Below the pieces are notes generated by a model that saw only the letters and a list, made by a program, of their open reading frames with translations, was not told where the DNA came from and did not search any database. Positions 6,318-20,464 of a DNA stretch of 64,000 nucleotides are shown here, piece by piece; position 1 is the stretch's first letter; every line of letters begins with the position of its first letter. The stretch is from Candidatus Aenigmatarchaeota archaeon. Lineage in GTDB: Archaea > Aenigmatarchaeota > Aenigmatarchaeia > JACPZZ01. The stretch lies in assembly GCA_043801595.1 (NCBI GenBank), contig JAZDLW010000019.1, forward strand, positions 1 to 64,000, read 5' to 3'. Position numbers and translations under genes: made by a program.

Positions 6318-6959
6318 ATGAAATTTGATGACAACTTGTTATTTTATAACATGCCTGAAATAAGCGAGATGTCAAAGGGTTTGGCACATAAAATAAATTC
6401 CAGCTACAGACCCGACATCGTAATTGGTGTGTTAAGGGACGGCTTCGTACCTGCGTTTGAGATCGTTCAAGAATTGAAGGTCCCGTATGGTTTCATAAGA
6501 GTTCAAAGGTCAAACATCTCCTTTTTTCAAGATAGCGGTGAAAGGGTTATTGAGGGCGGTGTTGTAGTACCCGGACAACCCGATTATTCATTGAACGGCA
6601 AGCGGGTACTTCTGGTAGACGATACGTATCATAGCGGCCGCACGCTGGAGTACGGCAAGGCTCACCTCGAATCCAAAGGTGCCAAATGTATAATGACAGC
6701 AGTTCTTAATTTCTCGCAAAGCGGTAAAACTCAATGGGACAACAGACAAAAACCTGATTTCTGGGAGTTTGAAGGTTATTCAGGTGTTTTTCCTTGGGAC
6801 GCTAGCAGGTGGAACGCTAGCAGGTTAGGAGGCGGAGATGATTGTATAGATTACGTGATAGAGAAAGGAACGCTTTTTCCGGAATTAAAACCTATAATTC
6901 AAGTGCATTTTTCCAATAATAGACCGCCCCAAGTCGGAGAATCCGATCTTTATACCTAA
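6318..6959 (+). CDS. Type I phosphoribosyltransferase
   Basis: VLLVDDTYHSGRT PRPP-binding loop; GVLRDG; VFPW. Confidence 0.8.
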   Translation: MKFDDNLLFYNMPEISEMSKGLAHKINSSYRPDIVIGVLRDGFVPAFEIVQELKVPYGFIRVQRSNISFFQDSGERVIEGGVVVPGQPDYSLNGKRVLLVDDTYHSGRTLEYGKAHLESKGAKCIMTAVLNFSQSGKTQWDNRQKPDFWEFEGYSGVFPWDASRWNASRLGGGDDCIDYVIEKGTLFPELKPIIQVHFSNNRPPQVGESDLYT

Positions 6960-7951
6960 ACCAAAACGATCTTCCTGAACGCGCTTTCAGCTTCGTCTTT
7001 TTTCATGTTCTTTGTGATGACACGGCCATCTGTAAAAATTGTAAGCTCTTTTTTATTTTGACCGGCCTTAATCAGGAACTCATTTTCCGCGGTCACCAAA
7101 AATCCCGGCGGTAGCCTTTCTTTTGAAACACGCATATCCAACCGTATTTTATAAGGCGGCGATATATGGTACGAATTGCTGCCGCACAGCGATGTTATCC
7201 GCGATTCACAACTTCCGCCCAAAAAATCGAATTTTCGCAGCGAGCAAACCCTGCAGTTCGGGTCTTTCCTGACACTAAAACTTTTCATTATCATATGTTC
7301 CAGATCAGCGTACAAAAGCAAACGCATCAGCGTGTATTTTTGTCCTCCCAAATACTTCAGCGCTTCATTCGACTGTACGGCTGATATCAATGAAATTATC
7401 GAGTTGGTGATGCCGGAGGTTTCGCAAACTTCAGTTTTCATCGGCAACTTTTTTATAAAACAATTAAGACAGTTTGTGGTTACGTCTATGAAGCTAACAT
7501 AACCAACATTTCTTATAGCAGAACCGTATATCCAGGGAATTTGGAGCTTTACGCACGCCTCGTTCAAAACAAACCTGGACTGCATGTTATCCAGGCCGTC
7601 TATAACAAGGTCGTATCCATTAATCAGGCTTTCGGCATTTTTTGGATTGAAGTCTTCTACCTCGGCTATAATATTTATCGAAGAATTTATCCGTTTCAAT
7701 TTGTTCGCCAGACCCAACGCTTTTGGGAGGTTTATATCCTCTTCGGAAAACACACTCTGCCTTTGAATATTGGATAATTCAAGGAAGTCCCTGTCTACGA
7801 GCTTTATTGTGCCGACACCCGACCGCGCCAGAAGTTCCGCTGACGATGATCCCAATGCGCCACACCCAATAATGCAGACTTTGGACTTTCCTATTTTGTC
7901 CTGCGCCCATTTTCCGATGTAGGCAATCTGGCGTGAATATCTGTTTTCCAT
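6956..7951 (-). CDS. ThiF/MoeB (E1-like) adenylyltransferase
   Basis: RYSRQ, GCGALGS, DRDFLELSNIQRQ, two CxxC motifs. Confidence 0.9.
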   Translation of the reverse strand: MENRYSRQIAYIGKWAQDKIGKSKVCIIGCGALGSSSAELLARSGVGTIKLVDRDFLELSNIQRQSVFSEEDINLPKALGLANKLKRINSSINIIAEVEDFNPKNAESLINGYDLVIDGLDNMQSRFVLNEACVKLQIPWIYGSAIRNVGYVSFIDVTTNCLNCFIKKLPMKTEVCETSGITNSIISLISAVQSNEALKYLGGQKYTLMRLLLYADLEHMIMKSFSVRKDPNCRVCSLRKFDFLGGSCESRITSLCGSNSYHISPPYKIRLDMRVSKERLPPGFLVTAENEFLIKAGQNKKELTIFTDGRVITKNMKKDEAESAFRKIVLV

Positions 7952-7993: not shown

Positions 7994-8422
7994 ATGGATA
8001 CAAGCCAGATACTGAAAAAATACCAGATTATAGCAGTAATCGGATGCTCGACGGATGTTACAAAAGATTCGAATATTGTTCCAGCGTATATGCTTTCGAA
8101 AGGATTCCGTATAATACCGATAAACCCCAACGGAGGAACGATTCTCGGGCAAAAATCCTACAAATCCATGGAAGGGATCCCCTACGACCGTAAATCGCGA
8201 ATAGAGATCGTAAACATATTCCGTCCTTCTTCCGAGCTGTTGCCGATAGTCCACTCGATTGTCAAAGACAAAAAAGCCATGCCTTCGTTGAAAGTCATAT
8301 GGGCACAGCTTGGCATACAGGATGAGGCGGCGAAACAACTGGCAGAACAGAACGGGTTTACTTTTGTCCAAAACCGCTGCATGATGAAGGATTACAAGGT
8401 TAAATTTTCCGTTTCCATTTGA
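7994..8422 (+). CDS. CoA-binding protein (YccU-like)
   Basis: IAVIGCS, IPINP, IVNIFRPS, VIWAQLGI, VQNRC. Confidence 0.88.
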   Translation: MDTSQILKKYQIIAVIGCSTDVTKDSNIVPAYMLSKGFRIIPINPNGGTILGQKSYKSMEGIPYDRKSRIEIVNIFRPSSELLPIVHSIVKDKKAMPSLKVIWAQLGIQDEAAKQLAEQNGFTFVQNRCMMKDYKVKFSVSI

Positions 8423-9779
8423 CGCCTGCGGGTGTGTCTTCGAGAATTATTCCCATGCTTTCAAGCTTGTTCCTTATCTCGTCGGATTTTTTGTAGTCCT
8501 TGTCTTTTCTCGCCTTTTCGCGTTCATTGACAAGTTTTTTAATGTTTTCGGATACAACAATCTTCGAATAATTTTCAAGTACCCCCAAAAGGCCGGCAAG
8601 TTCGAAAATAGTCGTTCTTAAGAAGTTTTTCGAGTCTGCCCCGATTTTATCGTTTTCAGACGTGTATTTGTTCACCAGATCAACCAGTTCAAACAGCGAT
8701 GATATCGCCTCAGGCGTGTTGAAGTCGTCGTCCATACTCTCAACGAAGTCGTCTTTAATTTTTTGGACCGCTTCATCGATTTCGCTATCGCTCCCGCCTT
8801 TTTCTTCGATGTTATCTAGGGTCGCGACAGCATTGTACAATGTGCCGAGCGTGTTCTTTGTCCGCACAAGGCTTTCTTCGTGAAAATCCACCTGGCTCCT
8901 GTAGTGGGACATTGCAAAGAACAATCTCAATACCTCCGCGTTGTATTTTTTCAACGCATCCTTTATTGTTATGAAGTTTCCGAGCGATTTCGACATCTTT
9001 TCTCCGTTGACCAGAAGAAAACCGGAGTGAGTCCATATTTTTACCATCGGCTTCTTTCCGGACATGGATTCCATCTGCGCGATCTCAGCCTCATGATGTG
9101 GGAATATCAGGTCTATCGCGCCGCCGTGCAAGTCGTACTGCGAACCCAGGTATTTTTCGGCTATGGCGGTGTCTTCTATATGCCAGCCTGGCCTTCCGAA
9201 ACCGAAAGGCGAATCCCAGCCAAGCTCGGATTTATCGCGTTTTTTCCACAAAGAGAAGTCCTGCTGGTTCTTTTTTGTCGTGTCTGGTTCGATTCGATGC
9301 TTGCTCAATTCCTCCGTGTTCTGGTGCGATAATTTTCCGTAATCAGCGAATTTCGTTATGTCAAAGTAGACGCCTGTCTTAGTTTCGTATGCGACCTCTT
9401 TTTCGATCATTCTTCGTATCTGGCTTATGATTTCGTTTATGTGCTCTGATGCCCGTGCGAACTTATCGATACTGCTGATACGAAGCGATGTCATGTCGTC
9501 CATGAACGATTTTTCAAACTGCGTTGCGATGTCTTTCGGATTTTTTCCGGTCTCCTTTGCACGGTTTATTATCTTGTCGTCGACGTCGGTTATATTCATC
9601 AAAAAGAAAAGATCGTATCCGCGGTAGCGGAGATATTTTGCGATTATGTCGTACGCGGTGTAAGTCCGTGCGTGTCCTAAGTGCGAGTTATCGTAAACGG
9701 TCGGGCCGCACACAAACATCTTTACGTCCGTTTTCGTCAATTCTTCCTTTTTCTTTGTTAGCGTATTGAATATTCTCAT
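8400..9779 (-). CDS. cysS: Cysteine--tRNA ligase
   Basis: CGPTVYD, HLGH, GRPGWHIE, DLIFPHHE, KMSKS. Confidence 0.97.
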   Translation of the reverse strand: MRIFNTLTKKKEELTKTDVKMFVCGPTVYDNSHLGHARTYTAYDIIAKYLRYRGYDLFFLMNITDVDDKIINRAKETGKNPKDIATQFEKSFMDDMTSLRISSIDKFARASEHINEIISQIRRMIEKEVAYETKTGVYFDITKFADYGKLSHQNTEELSKHRIEPDTTKKNQQDFSLWKKRDKSELGWDSPFGFGRPGWHIEDTAIAEKYLGSQYDLHGGAIDLIFPHHEAEIAQMESMSGKKPMVKIWTHSGFLLVNGEKMSKSLGNFITIKDALKKYNAEVLRLFFAMSHYRSQVDFHEESLVRTKNTLGTLYNAVATLDNIEEKGGSDSEIDEAVQKIKDDFVESMDDDFNTPEAISSLFELVDLVNKYTSENDKIGADSKNFLRTTIFELAGLLGVLENYSKIVVSENIKKLVNEREKARKDKDYKKSDEIRNKLESMGIILEDTPAGVKWKRKI

Positions 9780-10177
9780 ATCAAACCCCTTTCAATAAGG
9801 AACGGAAGTATTTTTTGTTTCGTTATGGGCGTTACTATTTCAACGGGCGCAGCCTCAAGATTCTCGCGGCTAAACCATTTCAGCTCTTCTATGTCTTTTG
9901 TCGTGTGCGGTTCGTTTTTCAGTTCGCCCGTATAAGCGCGTATATGCAAAGACATTTCGCCGGTCTCGTATGAGAATTCGTTCATAAATTTCAACGTCTC
10001 TTCCTTGGCAATTGTTCCGACCTCTTCAATCAATTCGCGCTGCAGGCATTGGAGATCATTTTCGCCTTCTTCAAACTTACCGCCAATTGTCAGGAACCTA
10101 TTGTCATTCGGTTCACGCGAAAGCAGAAGTTTCTTGTTTCTTATCAGAAACAACGCACACTTGTTGATCGTTCTCAT
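9776..10177 (-). CDS. NUDIX hydrolase
   Basis: GGKFEEGENDLQCLQRELIEEVG Nudix box. Confidence 0.85.
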   Translation of the reverse strand: MRTINKCALFLIRNKKLLLSREPNDNRFLTIGGKFEEGENDLQCLQRELIEEVGTIAKEETLKFMNEFSYETGEMSLHIRAYTGELKNEPHTTKDIEELKWFSRENLEAAPVEIVTPITKQKILPFLIERGLI

Positions 10178-10355
10178 AAAAATACTATTAGAATTTTGTA
10201 GATTAAAGCATTAAATCCGTTATTGCGAAGTTCCGGTTAAACAAATAGCCCGAATGTCGAATAGATGATAACGTCGATAAAACGGCCGGACGGTTTTTTA
10301 TAGCTGCAAAGCTTCCAGTTTTTTCGAAAATGCAGGCGTGAAAAATTAGACGGGA

Positions 10356-11513
10356 TCATTTTTTGTGCTTGAATACCGATGTTAGCGGTTCATTTAATAT
10401 GAATTCGTGCATCCTGTTTCGGGCGTCAGCCAGTTTTTCCTGATGTTCCAATAAAAGCTTCTTGACTTTGGGCGTCACTTCTTTTTTGTGTTCGCCGCAC
10501 ATAAGCTGTCCTGATCTGCATGCCTTGTAAACGGAATCGTCATTCAAAAAATTGTTCGCGTCCAATCCGTAGATCGGGCAGATTTCAGGTATTCCGCCCC
10601 TTTCGCGCTGTAGATCTGCGATCGCACTTCCGCCGTTGTACGATGTTTTTATCAGTTTCTCCGCCCTTTCCGGTGTGTCTGTAAGAAATATCGCAGACTC
10701 GGGCCTTGATGTGGACATTTTTCCCTTGCCGTCAAGACCGAACAAAAATTTAGTGCAAACTTCCGCCGGAGGAACCATACCTTTTTTCTTGGCAATGTCC
10801 CGCGCAAGCTGTATGTACGGGTGTTGGTCAATGCCCACCGGGATTACGGTTGGCTGCGTGCCGCCGAATTCTTCCAATTGCGGCAGAAGGATCTGTGCAA
10901 GTTGTACGGCGCCCCTGTAAAAAACGACACCAATGTTTTGGCTTTCATCAACGCCGAAAACACCGTTTATTTTGCCTACTGTCAATTCGCGGGATATATC
11001 AATCGCAAGGTTATAGATATTCGTGTAATCGGAGTCCACGAAAATCCTGGTTTTTCCCGGTTTGAAACCCATTGCTATTATGCTTGGTATTACGTCTTCG
11101 TATGCGATTCGTCTTGATTCTCCAAGCGAGTCCTTTTTGCGCACCAGATACGTTTCATCGTTCGTAACAGGTATGTAAACTGTAGCTCCCTGCTCCTGAA
11201 ACCATAGCAATTCGTCGAAGATCGCCTTATGACCGAGGTGCAGCGGGCCGGACGGGTTAAGGCCTGATACGGCAGCCCACCTGTCGCCGTTTTCCATTGC
11301 TGGCGCAACCGATTCCAAATCCTTGTGCGCATATGTCACGCCCATTTTCATGAATCTGCTCGGAGACGGATGATAGGAAGCGAACCTTGAGACACTTTTC
11401 AGTCCGAGTTCTTCCATTTTTTGTTCGTAGAATCGGCGTTCTTTTTCCCCCAACGCAAGTTTTATGCTGTAATCCTTTTCCACCATTTCGAGCATTTCTT
11501 TAGAGTATGCCAC
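10356..11513 (-). CDS. trpS: Tryptophan--tRNA ligase (divergent TrpRS, paralogue B)
   Basis: SGLNPSGPLHLGH, PVGIDQHPY, KMSTS, CRSGQLMCGEHK; QLAQILLPQ replaces the usual QAADILxPQ. Confidence 0.8.
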   Translation of the reverse strand: MAYSKEMLEMVEKDYSIKLALGEKERRFYEQKMEELGLKSVSRFASYHPSPSRFMKMGVTYAHKDLESVAPAMENGDRWAAVSGLNPSGPLHLGHKAIFDELLWFQEQGATVYIPVTNDETYLVRKKDSLGESRRIAYEDVIPSIIAMGFKPGKTRIFVDSDYTNIYNLAIDISRELTVGKINGVFGVDESQNIGVVFYRGAVQLAQILLPQLEEFGGTQPTVIPVGIDQHPYIQLARDIAKKKGMVPPAEVCTKFLFGLDGKGKMSTSRPESAIFLTDTPERAEKLIKTSYNGGSAIADLQRERGGIPEICPIYGLDANNFLNDDSVYKACRSGQLMCGEHKKEVTPKVKKLLLEHQEKLADARNRMHEFILNEPLTSVFKHKK

Positions 11514-11517
11514 AATA

Positions 11518-12528
11518 TCACCTTAATACCAAAATAATATTTTTTCCCAAACTATCAGCAACAGTTCTTCGCAACTCCTCCGGAGTTATCTTACCTTCGT
11601 AATAAAGTTCAGGAATTTCCAGAGGAGAGGATTCGCCTTTCAATCTTTTTCCCGCCATTTCGGATATTATTCCGATATCAAGAACGGGATTCGGAAGTGA
11701 CGGATTTTTTGAGATGAATGAACGTTCAATAAGCGCACGCGCCTCTTCGGGAGTTGTCCTTCCGGCGATAATACGGTTCGCGTGCAGTCTTTTGCTGTCC
11801 GCCTTGTACGCGGTTATTCCGAACTCTTCCTCCTCGTGCGAAAAGAAATAACTCCAGCCAAGCCCAACCGGGAATGTCGGGGATAAAAATACGGATAAGA
11901 TGCGCGGATAGCCGAGTTTGTCAGCAACTCTTCTGCTTACCGAATCGTAAAGGTCTTCTCTCGGCGGACCGACTTTAATATCGAAATTCAGAATCGTGTT
12001 TATTTCGTCGAACGAGTACCCGAAGCCCCTCTGTTTTTCGATTTCCGTTTTGCTGGGCGGTACTGTTTTTTCCACCATTTCCATAAGAGACGGGTCGGCG
12101 TTGCAAATTTTACTTACCTGTGCCAATCTTTTCTGGAATTCCGGAGAGTCGATATATTCGCTCATCTTAATCACTTTAAGACCTGTCCCGTAAACTTCGT
12201 TCACAGTCTTTACAAAGTCTGCCCTCTCTTTCCCGAGTTGCATGTAACGATATTTTAAATTATCAGATACGTTCCTGCACGCCGCGCTATCCGCAACCAA
12301 TATTGTCGGCTCAGTTTTCCATCCGTTGTCGCGCAGACTCTTTCCGAGTTCTGAAACAAAGAAGTAATACTTCATGCTGTCGATTGTATTTCCGTAGTCA
12401 TCGTAGGTTTCCCCGTAAAATATTCTTGTCGCGTCCGGTTTTCTGGAATCAGCCCTCGCTCTAATTTCTTCGGTATCGGGGTGTTCGATTACCAGCCCTC
12501 TCTGAGAGAATAATTTGCTAATTTCCAT
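11518..12528 (-). CDS. TyrRS-fold protein lacking HIGH motif (class Ic aaRS-like / CDPS-like), paralogue 2
   Basis: By-eye alignment to archaeal TyrRS: ILVAD, MSEYIDSPEF, YSFDEINTI, DIKVGPPRE, YKADSK, TPEEARALI, ITPEELRRTVADSL; clearly paralogous to 12538-13485. Confidence 0.6.
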   Translation of the reverse strand: MEISKLFSQRGLVIEHPDTEEIRARADSRKPDATRIFYGETYDDYGNTIDSMKYYFFVSELGKSLRDNGWKTEPTILVADSAACRNVSDNLKYRYMQLGKERADFVKTVNEVYGTGLKVIKMSEYIDSPEFQKRLAQVSKICNADPSLMEMVEKTVPPSKTEIEKQRGFGYSFDEINTILNFDIKVGPPREDLYDSVSRRVADKLGYPRILSVFLSPTFPVGLGWSYFFSHEEEEFGITAYKADSKRLHANRIIAGRTTPEEARALIERSFISKNPSLPNPVLDIGIISEMAGKRLKGESSPLEIPELYYEGKITPEELRRTVADSLGKNIILVLR

Positions 12529-12537
12529 GATCTCAGC

Positions 12538-13485
12538 TTACGCGAAGAAATTGGCTACGTAAAGATTTAAGTAGCTGAGCGCCATATTTTTAAGTTTTTT
12601 GTCGGACATGCCATCTGTTGAGAACGGACGGATGTCGTTTTCCACTCTTTGCCTTGCCAAGTCGGCTGTTACCAGAACGTGTTCCACGGCTTTTCTGTTC
12701 TTAGAAGATCTAATCAGATACCTTGCCTTGTCGCCGTCAAACGGATCAAGACATATTCTTCTTTCCTGCATACCTTTGCTGCTTAGCTTGTACGGCAGAA
12801 GACCGAATGGAATTTCTTCTTCGGTGTCCCCCAGCGGCTGTATTTCCGTGAGATGAATGGCCGCGTATTTTTTCAAACCCGCCGCGGGTCCGAACCTTCT
12901 TGCTGGTTTGTCGTACATCGCCTCGTATGGGGGACCGACTTTGATGTCCGTATCCCACGCGGCAATTGATGCTAGCTCTTCCAACGGGTAATTGATAGAA
13001 TCTTTATTGTTTCTTCTATCTTCAGGCACGGCCATTGAAACAAGCGATGCGAATCGCGGATTGGTTTCCATTTCCTGTTTCAACTTATTTAATGTCTGCT
13101 GATATTCCGGTGTTTCACGCAATGCGGATGAGAATTCCATGTGAATCTTTCCTTTATATGCAAAGTTTATTCTGTCCAAAAAATTCCAGCGCCTGATTCC
13201 GTAAATACACGCTTCATCGTCGGTCATGTCCTTGTTTATATCGGTCAGAAAGTGGTCTGCGAGAAGCATGCCTGCGTTGGATTCTACGCCTCGCTCAGCC
13301 AGAATATCCTGAAAGTTCATCATAAACAGGCTATATTTCATCATATCGAACGGCTGGCCCGCGCGGTCGTATGTCTGCCCCATCATTATTTGGACAGGAT
13401 TTTTATTTCTTTGTATGGTTTTGAGTTCTTCCATACCTAGTACATCCGCAACAAGTTGCGGTTGTTTGAGATATTCCAATAGCAT
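12538..13485 (-). CDS. TyrRS-fold protein lacking HIGH motif (class Ic aaRS-like / CDPS-like), paralogue 1
   Basis: GQTYD, LLADHFLTDIN (cf. TyrRS LLADLHAYLN), YPLEELASI (cf. YPIMQVNDI), DIKVGPPYE (cf. DVAVGGMEQ), YKLSSKG (cf. KMSSSKG). Confidence 0.6.
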   Translation of the reverse strand: MLLEYLKQPQLVADVLGMEELKTIQRNKNPVQIMMGQTYDRAGQPFDMMKYSLFMMNFQDILAERGVESNAGMLLADHFLTDINKDMTDDEACIYGIRRWNFLDRINFAYKGKIHMEFSSALRETPEYQQTLNKLKQEMETNPRFASLVSMAVPEDRRNNKDSINYPLEELASIAAWDTDIKVGPPYEAMYDKPARRFGPAAGLKKYAAIHLTEIQPLGDTEEEIPFGLLPYKLSSKGMQERRICLDPFDGDKARYLIRSSKNRKAVEHVLVTADLARQRVENDIRPFSTDGMSDKKLKNMALSYLNLYVANFFA

Positions 13486-13488
13486 AGC

Positions 13489-14997
13489 TCACACCATCAA
13501 ATCGTTTTTCAATTCATTTACAATGTCGTACCATTTCGTCCTGTTCCTTTTTGATTCATCCACAATCGCCCGCGAAGGCAGCGGCGTCCAGAATGAAGGT
13601 TGAGATGTTTTTCTTCCCTGCGCACGCGCAAGCGCGTATTCGTAGACTTCTGTGCGCCTGTCGTAGTGTGAAAGCAGCTCATCCTTCAAATGTTGCTGGA
13701 CGATGTCACAGTTGTACTGACCGTTTTTTTCACATTCGCCAACAAGATAGTGACTCATTATTCTTGATCTTTCTTCCGGCGTTTTAGCAGCTTTCAGCGA
13801 ATCGTTCACAGAAGCTGGCGGGTTTTCACAAATTTCCCTGAAATTTATTTTGTTATAGCGGTTGAATTCACGCAGATACCTTACCATGTCCAACGCGCAA
13901 AATTCCGTGGCTTCTGTTGTGTTTGCGATTGAATACGATAGTTTTTCCGTTTCGGTTTTTAACCTGTCGGCGAGCGAAAGTTTTTGAGGGCCGGCGCCAA
14001 CGAACAACGTGCTATCGGGCTGGCTCGAACTGGCCTTGTTTCCGGTCAGACCTCTCATGTGCGGTATGTAAAATGCGGATGGCACGGTTTGCAATCCTGC
14101 AACAGGATTTACGCTTGACAGCGAATTTTTTATCATCTCAAGCGTCATAGTCATATGGCCGTCTTGGTCAGGGCCGCTGACCATGAATGAATGGTAGTTC
14201 GCGAAATCAGGGTGTTGCGGCAGAATTATGTCTGCGGCTTGCGATGCCCCGGCAAACAAGAACGGAAAGTTTTCCGCCAGCTTTTCAAATTTGTAAGTGT
14301 CTATTGCGAAATCAAAATTAATCGTAGCTATCAAACCTGCGGCCATTTCACTTGCCCTTTTTTCTTCTGATTGCAGATACACGTGTGCGGCGTCCAAGTT
14401 TATTCCATTCGCGCCCCAATCGAGCAGGTTATCGGCAGCCCAGTATTCGTATCTTTTTCTGCGCGATAACGAAGGATCGGATTCCATCAATTTTTTTTCT
14501 GTGCCCGCTTCCACATCGGCGACAGGGATGAATACCTGAGCGCCGTTTCTTTGAAAGTAAACTATCGTGGATGCGGTAAGCTTGTGCCCGAAGTGGACAG
14601 CGCCGCTCGGTTTGAAGCCGGATGCTATTCCCATGGTCTTTTCATTATTCAGCGCGTCTACCAATCCTGCGCCATTTCTCTGCCTGATTGCGCGCTGCGA
14701 CACTATGGGAAGTCCGCTGTCAAATTTTTCAAGCTCTTCGTACAATCCTGTCGCTGCCGGCTCCCCTTCTTCTGTGAGGTACCGTGATTCGTAACCAGAC
14801 GGTCCGCCGCTTTGGAGCTGCTTAAAGATTATGTCGTAGTTTTTTGTCCTAATTCTTCGTAGATCACCGTTTTCATCATCAGGAATTTTTGTCAGTTTAC
14901 CTTCAGGCGGTGTTACCCATTTTCCACCCTTTTTGTAATACAATCCTGTGGGTATGTTATCGAAAGAAACAGCATCGTCTTTTCCAGAGTTTTCCAT
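13489..14997 (-). CDS. TrpRS-like protein (paralogue A) with N-terminal extension and atypical C-terminus
   Basis: SGFKPSGAVHFGH, FIPVADVEA, QAADIILPQ, SGPDQDGH, GNKASSS (degenerate KMSKS). Confidence 0.75.
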   Translation of the reverse strand: MENSGKDDAVSFDNIPTGLYYKKGGKWVTPPEGKLTKIPDDENGDLRRIRTKNYDIIFKQLQSGGPSGYESRYLTEEGEPAATGLYEELEKFDSGLPIVSQRAIRQRNGAGLVDALNNEKTMGIASGFKPSGAVHFGHKLTASTIVYFQRNGAQVFIPVADVEAGTEKKLMESDPSLSRRKRYEYWAADNLLDWGANGINLDAAHVYLQSEEKRASEMAAGLIATINFDFAIDTYKFEKLAENFPFLFAGASQAADIILPQHPDFANYHSFMVSGPDQDGHMTMTLEMIKNSLSSVNPVAGLQTVPSAFYIPHMRGLTGNKASSSQPDSTLFVGAGPQKLSLADRLKTETEKLSYSIANTTEATEFCALDMVRYLREFNRYNKINFREICENPPASVNDSLKAAKTPEERSRIMSHYLVGECEKNGQYNCDIVQQHLKDELLSHYDRRTEVYEYALARAQGRKTSQPSFWTPLPSRAIVDESKRNRTKWYDIVNELKNDLMV

Positions 14998-15194
14998 GTA
15001 AACTCCAACTATAACTATTCGTGAATCGCAAGAGATTTAAGGTGCACGCATTCCGGCAATGTTTAAATAGGCGCGAAATTCTAATTAGTTAAGGTAATCG
15101 GTGATGCCGTACCAATGGACGCTCAGTTTGGGATAGACAACGGTTCTGTTATTTCTATCAAGATCAAAAAAATCGAATTTACGGGAAGAGAGTT

Positions 15195-16274
15195 ATGAAT
15201 ATCGAAAATATTGTCCGAAAATCTATCATCGACATGGGCGTAAAGGAATATGCACCGGATAAACAGGAAAAGACGCACAAATTTGATTTGTCGCTGAATA
15301 TAAACCCGTTCGGAGTTTCGGACAGGGTAATGGATAAGATACGCTCGATTTCACCGCCTGTAGTAAACAACTATTACGCTGAAAATCAGGATTTGAAAAT
15401 TGAAATATCGAATTACGTTGGCGTGAAACCGGAACAAGTTTTATTGGGCGACGGCTGTGACGGCTGCATAGAGATGATTGCACACACGTTCATTGAAAAT
15501 GGGGACGAGGTGTTAATACCTGTTCCTACGTTCCATCGATACGAGTTTCACACAGATCTTATGGGCGGGACGCCTGTGTTTTGCGAGATGAATGAAAATT
15601 TCGAGATAGATGCTGGAAAACTTCTGGAAAAGGCTACGGACAAAACGAAGATAATATTCCTCTGCGATCCCAATAACCCCACGGGTCTTGCGATAGACGA
15701 CACAATAAAGGAGAATATAATCAGAAGATTCCACGGAATCGTAGTAATAGACGAAGCCCTTGCCGACACCGCCGGGATAAACGGTTCGAAACTCGTGGAC
15801 AAGCATGACAATCTTATAGTCGTACGCTCATTTTCCAAGACTTTTGGCATAGCATCACTGAGAGTAGGATACATCATATCCAATGAAAAAATCGTTCGGG
15901 AGGTAAAGAAGACATCGTCGCCGTTCAAGGTCAACGGTTTGGCGCAGGAAGCTGCGCTTGAAGCGCTGCGTGACAAGGATTACATCAGGAAATCCAAGGA
16001 GTTTATAGACAAAGAAAAGAATTTTTTGTTCGACAGTCTTAAAACAATTGGTATGAAGTTTACCGATACTAAGACCACAAATTTCCTTCTCGACATCACG
16101 CCAACAGGACTCTCGACGTCTGAATTCGTTGATAGGCTGAAAGAAAAAAACGTAATAGTCACAAACGCAACCGTTTTCCGGGTTTCCGAAGATAAGTTTG
16201 TCAGGGTGTGCATTAGCGACCATGAGAGCAATGCCAAGTTCATAGATGTGATACGGGAGATCTGTGGCGATTGA
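15195..16274 (+). CDS. PLP-dependent aminotransferase, histidinol-phosphate/aromatic (HisC-like)
   Basis: LSLNINPFG, CDPNNPTG, IDEA, RSFSKTFGIASLRVGY (PLP lysine). Confidence 0.88.
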   Translation: MNIENIVRKSIIDMGVKEYAPDKQEKTHKFDLSLNINPFGVSDRVMDKIRSISPPVVNNYYAENQDLKIEISNYVGVKPEQVLLGDGCDGCIEMIAHTFIENGDEVLIPVPTFHRYEFHTDLMGGTPVFCEMNENFEIDAGKLLEKATDKTKIIFLCDPNNPTGLAIDDTIKENIIRRFHGIVVIDEALADTAGINGSKLVDKHDNLIVVRSFSKTFGIASLRVGYIISNEKIVREVKKTSSPFKVNGLAQEAALEALRDKDYIRKSKEFIDKEKNFLFDSLKTIGMKFTDTKTTNFLLDITPTGLSTSEFVDRLKEKNVIVTNATVFRVSEDKFVRVCISDHESNAKFIDVIREICGD

Positions 16275-16319
16275 GTGCAAACGCTTTAATAATCTTTGTT
16301 TCAATACCTTTCAGGTACA

Positions 16320-17012
16320 ATGCCACAACTTTCTGATCTTCGCGTGAAATTGGACCAGATGACCGGGAGAATAACCAGCAAACTCAAAGACAGGTCAAGG
16401 TTTCCGTTGAATACGCCTGTTTATGTGCCGGATGCGATCCCGATAGCAGGTAGAAGTGGCGTATCGCTTTTTGAGTTTGCTATTGAAGGACTGGAAAGGT
16501 ATCATGCTTCGTTGGGCAGGTACAATTATCCGGACCAGTTTCCATTGCTGAGGAATGAAGAGCGTTCAACAGTGTATAGACACGTGCCTCCGGCGGACGT
16601 GAGCGCAGTAAGCATAAGCATAGGAAGTGACATGGTAAATTTCTACCGCGATTTTCTAAAGAACCTTTGCACAGATCATAGCGAGGATCCTATATCGTTC
16701 GGAGAAACCGCTTACTGTGATGCAGACCTTCTTGAATTAACTCACGAAAGAATAAATCTTGGAAGATATGTCGCAGAATCAAAATTACAGAGAGAGCCGT
16801 CTGTAAGAGATTTTGTCGGCGATGAGAAATTGCTTACCCCGAAGTTGAGGGATCTTGGCAGGGAGGAACAGGTCGTATCAAAGGCGAAAAATATTGCCGG
16901 CCAGTATGAACTTTCACAGGATGTAGCGGAAAAATACATGCGATGGATTATTTCAGAAACGATCAAGGTCGAGGTCGAATATCTGCAAAAAAAATTCCAG
17001 CCTGTCGGCTGA
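16320..17012 (+). CDS. Chorismate mutase, eukaryote-like AroQ-beta (Aro7-type)
   Basis: LSDLRVKL, RSRFPLN, HASLGRYNYPDQFP, RINLGRYVAESK, WIISETIKVEVEYL parallel the yeast/plant chorismate mutase motifs. Confidence 0.8.
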   Translation: MPQLSDLRVKLDQMTGRITSKLKDRSRFPLNTPVYVPDAIPIAGRSGVSLFEFAIEGLERYHASLGRYNYPDQFPLLRNEERSTVYRHVPPADVSAVSISIGSDMVNFYRDFLKNLCTDHSEDPISFGETAYCDADLLELTHERINLGRYVAESKLQREPSVRDFVGDEKLLTPKLRDLGREEQVVSKAKNIAGQYELSQDVAEKYMRWIISETIKVEVEYLQKKFQPVG

Positions 17013-17169
17013 TGTTCTGGTTTTTAACTGACAAAAAGCTCCATTCAAAACTGCTTGACGTAGCGTCTGCGAAAAAATTTAACATCGAAACCAATGATAT
17101 GTTAAGCCGTTACACCTTTTGCACGAATCGATTCTGTTGTTTTTATTTCTGGTTGTGCAATAAAATCAT

Positions 17170-17787
17170 ATGGGCGGGCCCGAAACGACTAAGCAGAGTT
17201 ATGACAAGTCGGCATCCTTATGGGCAGACAACCATTGGACACACAACCAAGAAAAAGATTTGGGTCTAATTCCGATTCTGAAAAAATTTGTTGAAATAAT
17301 CGGTAATAGGGGATCGGTATTGGATGCGGGTTGCGGTCCTGGAAGGGACACCAAGTTTTTGCTCGAGTGTGGGATAAAAACAATAGGTATAGATTTTTCC
17401 GACGGTATGCTGGAAGAAGCAAAAAAAAGAGTTCCCAACGGTGATTTTAGGAAAATGGATATGAGAGTTCTCGACTTCGAAGATAACGCATTTGAAGGCG
17501 TATGGGCGTGTGCGTCGTTGCTGCATTTTCCGAAAAATGAAATTTCAAAATCCCTGAAGGAATTTGGCAGGGTATTAAAACCGAACGGAATTTTGTGCGC
17601 GCTTGTAAAAGAAGGAACAGGGGAAGGGATAGAAACAGAGAAATACGGTCCCAGATTTTTTGCTTATTATCAGAAGGAAGAATTCGAAAATAAAGTAAAG
17701 GAAAGCGGTTTTGAAGTGGTCGATTCAGGGATCAACAAAGGAGAAAAGTGGAACTGGATATGGGTATTCGCAAAGCCAGACAAGTAA
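17170..17787 (+). CDS. Class I SAM-dependent methyltransferase
   Basis: VLDAGCGPGRD, GIDFS, VWACASLLH, LKPNG. Confidence 0.9.
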   Translation: MGGPETTKQSYDKSASLWADNHWTHNQEKDLGLIPILKKFVEIIGNRGSVLDAGCGPGRDTKFLLECGIKTIGIDFSDGMLEEAKKRVPNGDFRKMDMRVLDFEDNAFEGVWACASLLHFPKNEISKSLKEFGRVLKPNGILCALVKEGTGEGIETEKYGPRFFAYYQKEEFENKVKESGFEVVDSGINKGEKWNWIWVFAKPDK

Positions 17788-17809
17788 TTTCCGGCGTAGT
17801 TAAAATTAA

Positions 17810-17968
17810 AGCTCGGAGGGAGAGTCGAACTCCCCTTTGACGCTTTCTGCCTCTTTTGATCAAACTTTTTCAAAACAACGAAAACAATCATGTTTTCGTG
17901 CACAGGAAATATTATGTTTCCTGTGAGTTTGACTGCAGGCGCCCACATAGCCGATCTGTCATCCGAGC
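17810..17968 (-). tRNA. tRNA-Cys(GCA) with 88-nt intron at 37/38 (17845-17932)
   Basis: GCTCGGA...TCCGAGCT; GGCGC-CTGCAG|intron|A-GCGTC; CTGC/GCAG central helix with AAA bulge; spliced length 71 nt. Confidence 0.9.
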
Positions 17969-18865
17969 TCAATAGTATGTGTTCATGTACCTGTCCGCAC
18001 TATCTGGCAGGACTGTCACAACAGTGCCGGATTTGATTTTCTTTGCAATCTTTAATGACGCAACAACATTGGCACCGGAGGAAATTCCTACGAACAACCC
18101 CTCTTCCTCGGAGAGTCTTGCGGCCATCGTTATCGCATCCTTATCTTTGACTTTGATGGTTTTATCTATTAAATTAATTCTATCCTCTACCAGCTTAGGT
18201 ATAAACCCCTCCCCGATACCTTCGATACGATGCATTCCGGGCTTTCCTCCTGTTAATACTGCGGAATTGAAAGGTTCGACAGCCACTATTTGCGTATCCG
18301 GCGCTTTCTTCCTGAGAATCTCTGCGATTCCCATCAGAGTGCCGCCGGTTCCGACTCCTGCGACGAACGCGTCGACGTGCCCCACTTCACGCAATATTTC
18401 GTTGGCAGTTTCGTGATGCGCATTGACATTGTCGACGTTCTCGAACTGGTTCAATAAAACCATACCATTGTTCGCTAATAGTTTTGCCTTTTCAATTGTT
18501 CCGTACACACCGAGTTTTTTCGGCGTTAGGACGACTTTTGCGCCGTAGTGCTTCATTATTCTTGCCCTTTCTTTGCTCGCGAACTCGGGCATGACAGCAA
18601 CGAATTTGTAACCCTTTATTGCGCATATCATAGCGAATGCTATGCCCGTGTTCCCTGTGGTCGGCTCAACGATTGTCATTCCCGGACGGAGGATCCCCTT
18701 TCTCTCAGCGGATTCTATCATGTATTTTACAATCCTGTCTTTAACAGAACCGCTTGGATTCAGGAATTCGGCTTTGGCGTACAGTTTCACACCTTTGAGT
18801 TTTGTTATCTTCTTTATTCTTACTATTGGCGTGTTTCCAATCCATTTCAAAATATTGACAGGCAT
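17969..18865 (-). CDS. cysK: Cysteine synthase (O-acetylserine sulfhydrylase)
   Basis: IGNTP, NPSGSVKDR, PTTGNTG, GVGTGGT, GISSGA; start moved to ATG 18865 after GGTGAT. Confidence 0.92.
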   Translation of the reverse strand: MPVNILKWIGNTPIVRIKKITKLKGVKLYAKAEFLNPSGSVKDRIVKYMIESAERKGILRPGMTIVEPTTGNTGIAFAMICAIKGYKFVAVMPEFASKERARIMKHYGAKVVLTPKKLGVYGTIEKAKLLANNGMVLLNQFENVDNVNAHHETANEILREVGHVDAFVAGVGTGGTLMGIAEILRKKAPDTQIVAVEPFNSAVLTGGKPGMHRIEGIGEGFIPKLVEDRINLIDKTIKVKDKDAITMAARLSEEEGLFVGISSGANVVASLKIAKKIKSGTVVTVLPDSADRYMNTYY

Positions 18866-18884
18866 AATATCACCACTATTCATA

Positions 18885-19079
18885 TTAGTCACTCCAGAAA
18901 AATATCTTTCTCCTTGTGTCTGACAGGACTCTGACATCCTTGATAAGGCCGTCACCTCTGAGAATTCCGAGATTGTACCTCAAAGTTCTTTCGGGCAATC
19001 CTGTTTCAATTGCGAGTTCTTGTATATTTCTTGGTCTAGAAAGAGCGTGCTTTATTTTCACCAAGGCAAAGGCGTTCAC
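18885..19079 (-). CDS. Small winged-helix HTH transcription regulator
   Basis: IQELAIETGLPERTLRYNLGIL HTH; GGTGA upstream; co-oriented with cysK. Confidence 0.75.
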   Translation of the reverse strand: MNAFALVKIKHALSRPRNIQELAIETGLPERTLRYNLGILRGDGLIKDVRVLSDTRRKIFFWSD

Positions 19080-19185
19080 CCATTTGATTCACCTTTGATG
19101 ATAACACAATTATGCTTTAATACGTTTTGGATAGCGGCAATGTTGTTTTTGTTCGGTCCTTTTGTATTTGAATTAATCTTTACTT

Positions 19186-19608
19186 TTATTCCGAAATTAT
19201 GAATTTACCCCTTAGATAGCATTCGACAAGATTTTTTGTTGCGGGGAACAGGTTTTTCGGAATTTTGTCCTCCGAAAACCATTCCCATTTTTTCCAATCT
19301 TCAGGAATTAGTAATTTTGGTTCGCCGTCGATCTTTGCAACTGCGCCTATTCCTATGTAGTGGTTTCCTAATGCGTAGTTGGCGTTTACGCAGATTATGT
19401 TGTAAACAGTTGCATTGCAACCGAACTCTTCCTTGATGTTTCTTCGTAGAGCATCTCCAATTTTTTCCCCAAAATTTATCTCTCTTCCAGGAACGCCCCA
19501 AACAGGTTTTCCCCCATAATTCCATTTATCTGTAAGAAGGCCGAGCAGGAATTTCCCATCTTTTACTACCAGAATATCCAAGCTGACTTTTGGTTCTTTG
19601 CTATCCAT
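19186..19608 (-). CDS. NUDIX hydrolase (degenerate Nudix box)
   Basis: From MDSKEPKV: WGVPGREINFGEKIGDALRRNIKEEFG; EPKLLIPEDWKKWEWF. Confidence 0.8.
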   Translation of the reverse strand: MDSKEPKVSLDILVVKDGKFLLGLLTDKWNYGGKPVWGVPGREINFGEKIGDALRRNIKEEFGCNATVYNIICVNANYALGNHYIGIGAVAKIDGEPKLLIPEDWKKWEWFSEDKIPKNLFPATKNLVECYLRGKFIISE

Positions 19609-19647
19609 CGTTGAACCATTCCTTTTACCGTTTCTGTGTGTCTTGTA

Positions 19648-19721
19648 TGCGGCGGCCGGGATTTGAACCCGGGTTTTGAACTTGGCAAGCTCATGTCTTA
19701 GCCAGGCTGGACCACCGCCGC
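19648..19721 (-). tRNA. tRNA-Gly(GCC)
   Basis: GCGGCGG...CCGCCGCA; TGAGC-TTGCCAA-GTTCA. Confidence 0.95.
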
Positions 19722-19854
19722 AAACGCAAACAGACGCACGGAAACTGAAACAGACATTGTCTGTTTCTAACTGCTTATGCGTCAGCAGACTTCGAGGAAA
19801 CCTGCGATTTCCTTTCTTAACTATTCTTCCTATTTGCGTTGTTGTTTTTATTAG

Positions 19855-20013
19855 CGTCGAGGGCGGGATTTGAACCCGCGCTGGCTTCGTTGACCGAACC
19901 AGATTTCGACTGAAGCATATCCTATGATATGCTTCGGTTTGCGTCTGGTTCAAGTTCCTTAACGCCAACAGGTTTAGCAAACCTGCGCCCTAACCTGGCT
20001 AGGCGACCTCGAC
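19855..20013 (-). tRNA. tRNA-Ser(GCT) with ~71-nt intron in the variable arm (approx. 19887-19957)
   Basis: GTCGAGG...CCTCGACG; intact CAGGT-TTGCTAA-ACCTG anticodon arm; insert between TGGC and GCCA of the variable stem; spliced length ~88 nt. Confidence 0.85.
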
Positions 20014-20131
20014 TTGTCGAATCAGAGCTGTTTTGATCAAAGAGCGCTTAATAGCGTCTTTGGCTATCGAAAAGCTTTATATTTATACGAATAAATATCC
20101 TTTTAGATAAAATAGATAAGGTGGAAAACAA

Positions 20132-20434
20132 GTGCCTATTAATGTAAAAGATATTTCTGAGGTATTCGGGAAGGATGTTTTTACTGACAAGGGTGCGTAC
20201 TGCGGTAAAATATCAGACCTTGAGTTTGATCTCACAAAATACAAGATCAGGGCGATCGTTATAGAATCTGTTAAGGGTTCTTATTTGTCGCAAATTGTAG
20301 GCGGCAAGAGGGGCGTGATTGTTCCGTTCCCGATGGTGCAGGCAGTGGGTGATGTTGTCGTAATCAAACATATAACAGCTCCTACAGGCGATATGACAGA
20401 AGACGTACCTGCCGAAACAACGACGCCAGAGTAA
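20132..20434 (+). CDS. PRC-barrel domain protein
   Basis: GKDVFTDKGAYCGKISDL...VPFPMVQAVGDVVVIK. Confidence 0.85.
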   Translation: MPINVKDISEVFGKDVFTDKGAYCGKISDLEFDLTKYKIRAIVIESVKGSYLSQIVGGKRGVIVPFPMVQAVGDVVVIKHITAPTGDMTEDVPAETTTPE

Positions 20435-20464
20435 ATTTTTCTGTATTGAAGTCCATTCTTATTC

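Follow-up and report, generated by a model that had tools for sequence, protein, structure and literature searches.

Introduction

Among the gene clusters described so far, the closest to the locus analyzed here is the one reported by Mukai, Reynolds, Crnkovic, and Soll (2017; Life 7:8, PMC5370408), who identified a clade of tryptophanyl-tRNA synthetases (TrpRS), named TrpRS-A, in bacteria belonging to the Candidate Phyla Radiation (CPR) and in a few DPANN archaea. One group of this clade, TrpRS-A2, carries an iron-sulfur (Fe-S) motif of the form C-x22-C-x6-C-x2-C, and a further homolog with insertions and deletions was termed TrpRS-A-like. Another protein, ORF1, was found constantly associated and co-evolving with TrpRS-A as well as TrpRS-A-like, beside canonical TrpRS and tRNA-Trp genes; 12 instances were found, and the functions were stated as remaining unclear (PMC5370408). 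The present study concerns a four-gene locus at positions 10356..14997 of a 64,000-nucleotide (nt) stretch of contig JAZDLW010000019.1 (assembly GCA_043801595.1) from a Candidatus Aenigmatarchaeota archaeon; "the window" below means this whole stretch. Its genes, called A, B, C, and D in the order of transcription, fit a TrpRS-A-like / ORF1 / ORF1 / TrpRS-A2 cluster, matched to the published families by description, not by sequence.

Two arrangements were proposed for the encoded proteins, namely ORF1 seated on TrpRS-A homodimers or a heterodimer resembling the trypanosomatid pseudo-dimer (PMC5370408). In the same report, ORF1 was predicted by SWISS-MODEL to lack a Rossmann fold, with 70 residues matched to cysteinyl-tRNA synthetase (CysRS), and a bacterial operon was described that is under the trp repressor or beside trpS, from which the authors inferred a role in tryptophan metabolism and encoding and not in the production of antibiotics, toxins, or peptidoglycan. 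We found no follow-up work under these names in the open literature, subscription journals lying outside the search. An earlier note on this DNA, made from the sequence alone, had stated that no system with this architecture is described; the 2017 report contradicts that statement.

To the published description we add the fold of ORF1 and its invariant pocket, a predicted docking of C on D, natural ORF1-TrpRS fusions, the linkage of the modules to tRNA-Trp genes in relatives, neighboring genes of amino-acid salvage, and evidence on lateral origin and selection. The explanation that we place first, and to which we give somewhat less than an even chance, is that the cluster encodes two accessory TrpRS/ORF1 complexes acting on tRNA-Trp, in which ORF1 is a non-activating subunit that binds tRNA and/or the aminoacyl end, and that they are tied to amino-acid salvage in an auxotrophic host.

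Genes A and D as additional TrpRS paralogs

The four open reading frames (ORFs) follow one another on the minus strand. In agreement with the earlier note, their gaps measure 3 nt (13486-13488), 9 nt (12529-12537), and 4 nt (11514-11517). Gene A (13489..14997, minus strand, 502 amino acids (aa), ATG start) is the divergent TrpRS paralog, and gene D (10356..11513, minus strand, 385 aa, GTG start) is the second one. Both match PF00579, the family of class I tryptophan and tyrosine synthetases, above its cut-off of 21.1 bits, A with 72.9 bits (E 3.5e-20, residues 119-357) and D with 130.8 bits (E 8.2e-38), and both carry the expected motifs (HFGH, KASSS, and GPDQ in A; HLGH, KMSTS, and GIDQ in D). 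Judged by sequence, A and D are TrpRS paralogs with intact catalytic motifs, which agrees with the reading of the outer genes as TrpRS-like in the earlier note. D also clears the TIGR00233 trpS model (222.7 vs 176.75 bits); A stays under the cut-off of every NCBIfam TrpRS equivalog and is above a cut-off in Pfam only. The two proteins share 26% identity across the catalytic core. A has an extra N-terminal region of ~105 aa and a conserved C-terminal tail, and in the alignment of these proteins (A2) it shows insertions and deletions relative to D and to canonical TrpRS.

The closest solved relative of A is Aeropyrum pernix TrpRS (3a04, E 3.9e-20), matched in the catalytic domain alone, and those of D are the same A. 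pernix enzyme (3a04, E 1.1e-60) and Pyrococcus horikoshii TrpRS (3jxe, E 1.4e-57). D carries an Fe-S-type motif, C312-x19-C332-x6-C339-x2-H342, in which the fourth ligand is His. Among 58 orthologs of D, four Cys are present in 41 (with a first spacing of x19, x20, or x22), another fourth residue in 3, and no motif in 14.

Neither protein is the only TrpRS of its host. The genome yields four PF00579 matches, which include a canonical TrpRS (L003:1273-2415; NF008927, 506.2 bits vs a cut-off of 478) and a canonical TyrRS (tyrosyl-tRNA synthetase; L001:1420-2520; NF006330, 382.3 bits vs a cut-off of 220). The earlier note had proposed a search for canonical trpS and tyrS elsewhere in the genome, and both are there.

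Residues Y159 and Q194 are the indole-binding positions of human and Pyrococcus TrpRS (PMC2831299). Compared with the human and P. horikoshii enzymes, D and A have V/A in place of Y159 and P in place of Q194. A new amino-acid specificity was considered on this ground and rejected, because A. pernix TrpRS, which has Leu and Ala there, likewise departs at both positions; the 3a05 entry of that enzyme is titled as a complex with tryptophan.

ORF1 proteins with a TyrRS-type fold and an altered pocket

Gene B (12538..13485, minus strand, 315 aa) is the ORF1-type partner of A, and gene C (11518..12528, minus strand, 336 aa) that of D; both products are TyrRS-like and lack HIGH. They align with 27% identity over 302 columns (E 2e-26) and have in common the motifs GxTYD, MKY, AD, and DIKVGPPxExxYD, so that the mutual paralogy proposed from the sequence holds. 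Neither Pfam nor NCBIfam gave a family above cut-off for B or C, with PF00579 unmatched, and a single-sequence search of C against the chains of the Protein Data Bank (PDB) gave only chance matches to proteins resembling green fluorescent protein (E >= 0.077). Homologs of B at E<=0.001 number 17.

For an AlphaFold2 model of C we used alignment A1, which comprises 38 sequences of B-type and C-type; the model reached a pLDDT of 92.8 and a pTM of 0.92. The model predicts a complete fold of the archaeal TyrRS type, with a Rossmann domain and a C-terminal helical domain. Its top solved matches in Foldseek are the archaeal TyrRS structures 2cyb, 7fg6, and 2cya (E 1.7e-11 to 1e-10, TM-score 0.65-0.70), and VIA structural alignment to A. 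pernix TyrRS 2cya gave Z 24.6 with a root-mean-square deviation of 2.9 over 287 of the 336 residues. In the same comparison, Leishmania, mimivirus, and human TyrRS reached Z 22-23, yeast and A. pernix TrpRS Z ~21, and cyclodipeptide synthases (CDPSs) Z 9-12.4, the last over the catalytic domain only. The fold of C became clear only with the model. Sequence homology to TyrRS is weak but significant; the A1 profile reaches 2cya at E 8.7e-4, and hhalign against the TyrRS of the host genome gives E 1.2e-4 over 239 columns. The Rossmann fold sought in the inner ORFs is present in the model of C, and the description of the inner pair as TyrRS-like proteins without HIGH stands with it. With PF00579 for A and D, a TyrRS-type model for C, and B as a paralog of C, the operon-like block does consist of class Ic paralogs only, as had been suggested. 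A lead to DIT1_PvcA clusters, given by an Atlas feature search (0.93), was set aside, as PvcA (3e59) reaches only Z 8.8 on the C model and ranks there with unspecific folds of class I.

At the position of HIGH, C has a conserved (T/P)xDxxK, located by motif pattern and by secondary structure in the model, since the alignments do not reach this N-terminal stretch. The equivalent of GxDQ reads GPP(R/Y)E in ORF1, and the ribose-binding Asp is gone. In C, S245-K246 align on the S-K of KMSKS, so that a KMSKS-like SK is kept, and the stretches NPVLD and ITPEELR align on motifs of the TyrRS C-terminal domain. The position of Methanocaldococcus jannaschii D158 is occupied by T, S, or A, and that of Y32, located by motif spacing as G39 minus 2, by F, M, or L. 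B and C are not classed as TyrRS, because HIGH, the Asp of GxDQ, and the ligands of the tyrosine hydroxyl are missing and PF00579 is not matched. Having lost HIGH and the ribose-binding Asp, ORF1 is probably unable to form an aminoacyl-adenylate.

The conservation of the pocket was followed in 102 distinct ORF1 sequences, 72 of C-type and 30 of B-type, with the grouping of conserved residues into a pocket taken from alignments. Fourteen residues are present in 102/102 (G39, D43, G46, R102, Y171, E175, K185, G187, P188, Y194, D195, G237, Y241, and R252). At position 41, T occurs in 101 sequences and S in 1; K53, E191, and S245 are kept in 101/102 each, and D80 in 100/102. None of the 28 invariant columns of A1 lies beyond residue 252, and all are in the catalytic domain. 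In the A1 profile match and the hhalign alignment, Y171 and E175 fall on the YxxxQ pair of TyrRS and E191 on the Gln of GxDQ, which we take to be Q173 of the M. jannaschii enzyme.

According to Sauguet et al. (2011; PMC3105412), M. jannaschii TyrRS holds tyrosine by Y32, Y151, Q155, D158, and Q173, and tyrosine touches G34; Y151, Q155, and Q173 are among the residues hydrogen-bonded to the substrate, and, from what their counterparts in AlbC do, Y151 and Q155 are assigned by analogy the contact to the main-chain amino group. The same work describes G35, Y178, and E182 of the CDPS AlbC as superposing on TyrRS G34, Y151, and Q155, with S37 as the acyl-enzyme nucleophile. G35, S37, Y178, and E182 are conserved in CDPSs, and AlbC E182Q is inactive (PMC3105412, PMC12945691). 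ORF1 keeps the amino-group side of this pocket (G, Y, E, E), and its two ligands of the tyrosine hydroxyl are swapped for hydrophobic or small residues, in a CDPS-like manner. The retention of the former and the loss of the latter argue for a protein that takes up an amino acid or aminoacyl group but does not activate it; whether it is an enzyme is left undecided by the pocket.

Predicted docking of ORF1 on its TrpRS partner

Prediction of a complex was carried out for the D+C pair. ESMFold2 gave ipSAE values of 0.76, 0.76, and 0.77, with 0.00 in all three controls; in a benchmark, this mark was attained by 116/157 solved complexes and by 2/215 mismatched pairs, counts that hold only roughly here because the alignments supplied were our own. 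Contacts agreed at 100% between runs, with 30-31 contacts and partner pLDDT >= 89. C and D are predicted, on this model, to form a physical complex, in which residues 43-49 and 66-75 of D, ahead of the first Rossmann strand, face residues 224-232 and 271-278 of C, the former an insertion preceding the KMSKS-like loop and the latter the stretch that connects to the C-terminal domain. D-type and C-type proteins conserve these segments within their families, but canonical TrpRS has them changed or missing, and B-type ORF1 has lost them. The predicted interface differs from that of class Ic dimers, which is formed by the dimer helices of connective polypeptide 1 (CP1).

Natural fusions of ORF1 with TrpRS were also found, P0187 (778 aa) and P0153 (612 aa). 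The AlphaFold2 model of P0187 has a pLDDT of 83.3 and a pTM of 0.58, and its C-terminal half matches A. pernix TrpRS at Z 39.6. The double-length TyrRS of Leishmania (3p0h, 665 residues) covers one half of P0187 (301 residues, model 432-760); because the pTM is low, it is uncertain how the two halves sit relative to each other, and the geometry with it. Given a non-canonical interface and a 3p0h alignment limited to one half, our working picture is that of an ORF1 bound peripherally to a TrpRS-A that may still homodimerize. Of the heterodimers envisaged in the earlier note, the binding itself is favored by the D+C prediction and the fusions, and an interface of the class Ic type is disfavored, since the predicted contact is elsewhere and 3p0h spans one fusion half.

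Modules, linked tRNA-Trp genes, and distribution

ORF1 forms a small family: out of 1.84 billion proteins, 203 representatives at 50% identity match it with E up to 0.001. Ten genome loci and 77 metagenome loci were reduced to 71 unique loci. D lies within 150 nt after C for 58 of the 67 C genes with downstream room; one gene resembling M28 peptidases stands between C and D in 6/67, and no D was seen in 3/67. A lies within 150 nt ahead of B for 26 of the 27 B genes with upstream room. The gene orders found are A-B-C-D, C-D-A-B, C-D alone, and C-D-C-D, from which it follows that the units are A+B and C+D. The four-gene arrangement is not due to chance, and the conserved synteny for which the earlier note called is seen in 58+6/67 for C-D and in 26/27 for A-B. 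In one Woesearchaeote (L008:1083-3843), the canonical TyrRS and TrpRS genes adjoin an aminotransferase gene and A-B-C-D, which places six class Ic genes in ~9 kb.

In the 71 unique loci, aragorn detected 20 tRNA genes, 11 of them tRNA-Trp(CCA). Nine of the 11 lie 2-404 nt before the called start of C, and in L069 and L103 the called start of the C ORF overlaps the tRNA. The tRNA-Trp genes of L007, L011, L013, L043, and L083 have a G73 discriminator and are divergent from C, and those of L058, L069, L085, L086, and L103 have A73 and lie on the strand of C, between two C-D pairs. G73 is an identity element of bacterial TrpRS (Mukai et al., PMC5370408). A tRNA-Pyl(CUA) called by the intron mode of aragorn in the host genome (contig C19:6366-6533, minus strand; L015) was rejected: its loop, CTTCTAA, gives the anticodon UCU, so that the gene is a tRNA-Arg(UCU) with an intron of ~90 nt at 37/38 and no suppressor tRNA is encoded there. 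The Rfam tRNA model was silent at C19:6366-6533.

The flanking CysRS of the window is 70-74% identical to proteins named Aenigmarchaeota, and the nearest named homologs of C are from Woesearchaeota or Nanoarchaeota (54-58%), with a few from CPR bacteria. ORF1 was found in 0/7 other genomes of the same order, and true ORF1 is absent from 370 other sampled genomes of the phylum, 8 of which show weak partial matches to a shorter family. Since the homologs of CysRS and C disagree and ORF1 was not found in relatives of the order and phylum, the cluster, aminotransferase gene included, was acquired laterally by this Aenigmarchaeote. In a Nanoarchaeota locus, a DDE transposase gene (L005:1886-2707) stands between the aminotransferase gene and A, which fits mobility of the cluster.

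The shorter family is a distant branch of ORF1 (~270-360 aa, roughly 290; no Pfam family) present at nine loci (L019-L027) in eight other Aenigmarchaeota genomes (G075, G186, G187, G198, G211, G225, G319, and G324), for example at L023:1135-2022:- with L023:437-1138:-. It keeps G39, D80, P157, Y171, E175, K185, G187, E191, Y194, D195, and Y241. T41 was considered as a universal nucleophile and rejected, as it is not conserved in this branch. A gene for an Asp/Glu/hydantoin racemase follows the shorter branch in 8/9 loci (7/8 genomes), directly in seven loci and after a 129-aa ORF in L022, and the ninth locus is truncated.

The dN/dS ratios, calculated by the NG86 method from orthologs 72-97% identical, are 0.126 for the single pair of A and, as medians, 0.138 over 6 pairs of B, 0.098 over 43 pairs of C, and 0.084 over 26 pairs of D; because dS (0.6-2.3) is near saturation, the values are rough, yet they are far under 1. 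They place all four families under purifying selection, and the decay that the earlier note proposed to look for is not seen in any of them (dN/dS ~0.08-0.14, not near 1).

Genes surrounding the modules

In relatives, several types of genes recur beside the modules, with counts that are lower bounds because many loci are short. Aminotransferase homologs, 48-54% identical to that of the window, adjoin the cluster in 5/10 genome loci and 9/71 unique loci, and homologs of its chorismate-mutase-like protein are present in 9/71, beside D in L010 and L012. Asp/Glu/hydantoin racemases are encoded at 10/71 unique loci (7 adjacent on the same strand), M28 peptidases at 9/71, YbaK-type aminoacyl-tRNA editing domains (tRNA_edit) at 8/71, MR_MLE racemases/epimerases at 7/71, EamA transporters at 6/71, M20 peptidases at 5/71, proteins resembling M15 D-Ala-D-Ala-dipeptidases at 5/71, and opine-dehydrogenase-like proteins at 3/71. 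What these neighbors have in common is the salvage of amino acids and dipeptides along with stereo-conversion, to which the quality control of tRNA is added.

Some of these genes are found inside the operons. C and D are separated by an M28-peptidase-like gene at L012:8986-9795, at L050:8980-9801, and at 7 other loci; an M20 peptidase gene is inserted between B and C at L050:6841-8004 and at 4 others, and 3 loci add an opine-dehydrogenase-like gene, giving seven-gene operons. At L006:1628-7999 (also in L092), C-D without A-B has upstream genes for an aminotransferase, a 511-aa beta-eliminating lyase of the tryptophanase / tyrosine phenol-lyase family, an amidohydrolase, and an MR_MLE protein.

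In the window, a divergent intergenic region of 197 nt (14998..15194) separates A from an aminotransferase gene. It contains A/T-rich TATA-like boxes, with GGAG 7 nt upstream of the ATG of A, and may act as a promoter region. The aminotransferase, of class I/II and HisC-like (15195..16274, plus strand), matches PF00155 at E 2.1e-53, is divergent to the operon, and falls narrowly below the TIGR01141 hisC cut-off (260.5 vs 276.55). It is followed by a gene for a chorismate-mutase-like protein of the plant/yeast type (16296..17012, plus strand, 238 aa; PF01817, E 7.8e-11), which TIGR01802 covers from end to end with 78.7 bits, against a cut-off of 170.9, and whose closest solved structure is Arabidopsis CM1 (4ppu, E 3e-18). 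The genome, which is 86% complete, gave no match for chorismate synthase (PF01264), prephenate dehydratase (PF00800), or prephenate dehydrogenase (PF02153). The protein of 16296-17012, of the plant/yeast (allosteric) type, could be an orphan enzyme or serve to bind a ligand.

Downstream of D, a gap of 178 nt is followed by a Nudix gene and the CysRS gene, and past CysRS lie genes seemingly unrelated to the cluster, for a ThiF-family E1-like protein (6956-7951, minus strand, 331 aa) and a CoA-binding-domain protein (7994-8422, plus strand). An Rfam scan of 8000-20500 gave two tRNAs and no other family. A tRNA-Ser(GCU) with an intron of ~69 nt (19854-20013, minus strand) was detected by Rfam, and a tRNA-Cys(GCA) with an intron of ~88 nt (17809-17969, minus strand) only by the intron mode of aragorn; many tRNAs of the host genome have long introns.

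Discussion

We favor, at the tentative level stated above, a scheme in which A+B and C+D are two modules, each a TrpRS/ORF1 complex working on tRNA-Trp. The TrpRS subunit (A or D) would activate tryptophan and charge the tRNA, and ORF1, by loops particular to its family, would dock at the N-terminal helical region of that subunit rather than at the usual dimer interface. Once docked, it may bind tRNA and/or the aminoacyl end, as a subunit for tRNA binding, hand-over, or proofreading. The cluster could then be an accessory, laterally transferred system for the supply and quality control of Trp-tRNA, traveling with salvage genes in aromatic-amino-acid auxotrophs. The data themselves show the gene order, the folds and motifs, their conservation, the co-occurrence of the genes, the fusions, the link to tRNA-Trp, and the lateral origin; the physical complex is predicted, and the identity of the substrate and the role of ORF1 are what we infer in this scheme. 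The interpretation given in the earlier note is partly supported by the data as a whole.

Several observations weigh against such accessory complexes. No tRNA-Trp gene lies beside the cluster within the window, and one tRNA-Trp was found in the host genome, on contig C23, with a 90-nt intron; archaeal genomes have one or two tRNA-Trp genes, and adjacency is not required (PMC5370408). The predicted C-D interface is small (30-31 contacts), and the complex is a prediction. The families of both chains have solved dimers, so the score could partly reflect memory, a concern eased by the fact that the predicted interface is not the solved one. A, B, C, and D were equated with the published families by description and not by sequence comparison. 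The operon of L050, in the order A, B, OctDH, M20, C, M28, D, looks like a pathway rather than a spare synthetase. The need for two more TrpRS paralogs beside the canonical enzyme is left unexplained, and the extreme conservation of the ORF1 pocket, with T/S two residues past G39 and a CDPS-like YxxxE, suits an enzyme over a passive subunit.

The last point leads to the alternative that we rank second, although we hold it to be unlikely, and which was the main idea of the earlier note: that ORF1 is a CDPS-like tRNA-dependent transferase that retains the TyrRS anticodon-binding domain, is fed with Trp-tRNA-Trp by its TrpRS partner, and passes on or condenses the aminoacyl moiety, the product being a small molecule that contains Trp or an aminoacyl-tRNA in modified form. 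HIGH and the ribose-binding Asp are missing from ORF1, and yet it has invariant G39-x-T/S41 and Y171-x3-E175; faint CDPS matches appear in three libraries (PF16715, E 0.29; TIGR04539, E 0.1; PDB 5ocd, E 1.1), and the Z of 9-12.4 reached by CDPS structures on the catalytic domain points the same way. An Atlas feature search lists a CDPS-bearing cluster (0.93; a lead only), dedicated tRNA-Trp genes accompany the modules, and genes for peptidases, racemases, and opine dehydrogenases lie within or beside the operons of relatives. However, every CDPS match is far under the family cut-off, with 11.3 vs 27 bits for PF16715 and 12.1 vs 45 for TIGR04539; P184 of CDPSs has no counterpart, the equivalence of Tyr202 is unclear, and T41 varies in the ~290-aa branch. 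YxxxE could equally be a TrpRS-like contact to the amino group, as made by E199 of human TrpRS (PMC2831299), the full C-terminal domain of ORF1 is lacking in CDPSs, the bacterial operon under the trp repressor or near trpS was read as Trp metabolism (PMC5370408), and tailoring enzymes typical of CDPS clusters were not seen in the window.

Synthetase paralogs that left translation have repeatedly become new enzymes, such as cyclodipeptide synthases, MshC, GluQRS, and HisZ. It is conceivable, albeit doubtful, that ORF1 is another one, a new aminoacyl-tRNA-dependent enzyme derived from TyrRS, in which a Thr/Tyr/Glu pocket replaces the ATP chemistry and the anticodon-binding domain is kept; each ORF1 would be tied to a TrpRS paralog of its own and, in relatives, to a tRNA-Trp of its own. 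A+B and C+D would then be two channeled "charge-and-transfer" machines that produce, modify, or proofread a Trp-derived aminoacyl product, perhaps in connection with the conversion between D- and L-amino acids.

We consider it improbable that the modules provide a spare TrpRS for stress, inhibitor resistance, or low tryptophan, with ORF1 as a chaperone-like stabilizer without ligand function. Precedents are an indolmycin-resistant TrpRS and Deinococcus radiodurans TrpRS II (PMC9437257), the option was listed by Mukai et al. (PMC5370408), and the patchy distribution is what lateral transfer predicts. Nevertheless, a passive subunit would not hold 14 pocket positions in 102/102 sequences across branches that are 27% identical, two differing modules side by side imply distinct, non-redundant roles, and genes for inhibitor biosynthesis were not seen nearby.

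Canonical pseudo-dimers, in which a TrpRS paralog and ORF1 would associate via the class Ic interface, so that each heterodimer would have a single active site and a single anticodon-binding site, have a rather small probability in our judgment. Dimerization is obligatory for class Ic enzymes, whose subunits bind tRNA jointly, the fold of ORF1 is whole, C-terminal domain included, ORF1-TrpRS fusions exist, and the possibility was raised by Mukai et al. (PMC5370408); on the other side, the predicted C-D contacts lie outside the CP1 dimer helices, and the alignment of 3p0h to one P0187 half weakens this arrangement but, with a pTM as low as 0.58, does not disprove it. Least probable of all is an altered substrate, whereby one or both modules would load tRNA-Trp with a tryptophan analog or a D-amino acid, or clear such products, with ORF1 as a site of chiral or chemical proofreading: TrpRS and TyrRS can mischarge D-amino acids, Asp_Glu_race, MR_MLE, M15, and YbaK-type domains recur beside the modules, a racemase gene follows the shorter ORF1 branch in most of its loci, and the archaeal D-aminoacyl-tRNA deacylase PF04414 was not found in the host genome at 86% completeness, but the pocket positions at which D and A depart differ in A. 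pernix TrpRS too and so give no sign of new specificity, no suppressor or unusual tRNA was found, and there is no racemase in the window.

The cluster has been an open puzzle since 2017, and our results recast it as a set of concrete bench tests. If ORF1 is catalytic, it would be a new family of tRNA-dependent enzymes, and there could also be a naturally insulated synthetase/tRNA pair in it, useful in code engineering; if it is structural, the complexes would be the first class I synthetase of a PheRS-like (phenylalanyl-tRNA synthetase) two-subunit design.

Comparison with known systems

The locus shares with the cluster of Mukai et al. (2017) an extra TrpRS with a Cys-rich motif of the Fe-S type, a further TrpRS homolog with insertions and deletions, and an ORF beside each; in both, a canonical TrpRS coexists, tRNA-Trp genes adjoin the modules (here in relatives), and the distribution is patchy and laterally transferred and takes in DPANN archaea of groundwater. 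It differs in that the host is an Aenigmarchaeote, no tRNA-Trp adjoins this copy, the fourth ligand of D is His and not Cys, and ORF1 models confidently as a whole TyrRS-type fold.

The double-length trypanosomatid TyrRS (3p0h) likewise joins two class Ic modules, one of them catalytic, and the single-chain fusions P0187 and P0153 come close to that design. In contrast to it, the modules here are one TyrRS-like and one TrpRS-like, are mostly encoded by separate genes, and are predicted to meet at a contact other than the class Ic dimer interface.

CDPSs (AlbC, Rv2275, YvmC; PF16715) resemble ORF1 in their catalytic fold, which is of class Ic and in which HIGH and KMSKS have no function, in G-x-(S/T) past the first strand, in Y-x3-E in the pocket, and, likely, in using an aminoacyl moiety and not ATP. 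Unlike them, ORF1 keeps a C-terminal domain of the anticodon-binding type and a KMSKS-like SK, has Thr in place of Ser and no equivalent of Pro184, and is paired with a TrpRS paralog.

A. pernix TrpRS (3a04/3a05) has in common with A and D the signatures SG(F/L)xPSGxxH(F/L)GHK and (A/T)(D/N)xE, and it shares with D, as does the Fe-S TrpRS of Thermotoga maritima (2g36), the motif C...C-x6-C-x2-(C/H) in the anticodon-binding region. In contrast to crenarchaeal-type and Fe-S TrpRS, A and D are additional to a eukaryote-like canonical TrpRS and have dedicated partner genes, and the N- and C-terminal additions of A are large.

PheRS is an (alpha-beta)2 enzyme made of a catalytic subunit and a subunit with a degenerate, inactive synthetase module that serves tRNA binding and editing. 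A catalytic subunit with a degenerate synthetase-module partner is also what we propose for A+B and C+D; PheRS, however, is of class II and universal, whereas the pairs described here are of class I, rare, and accessory.

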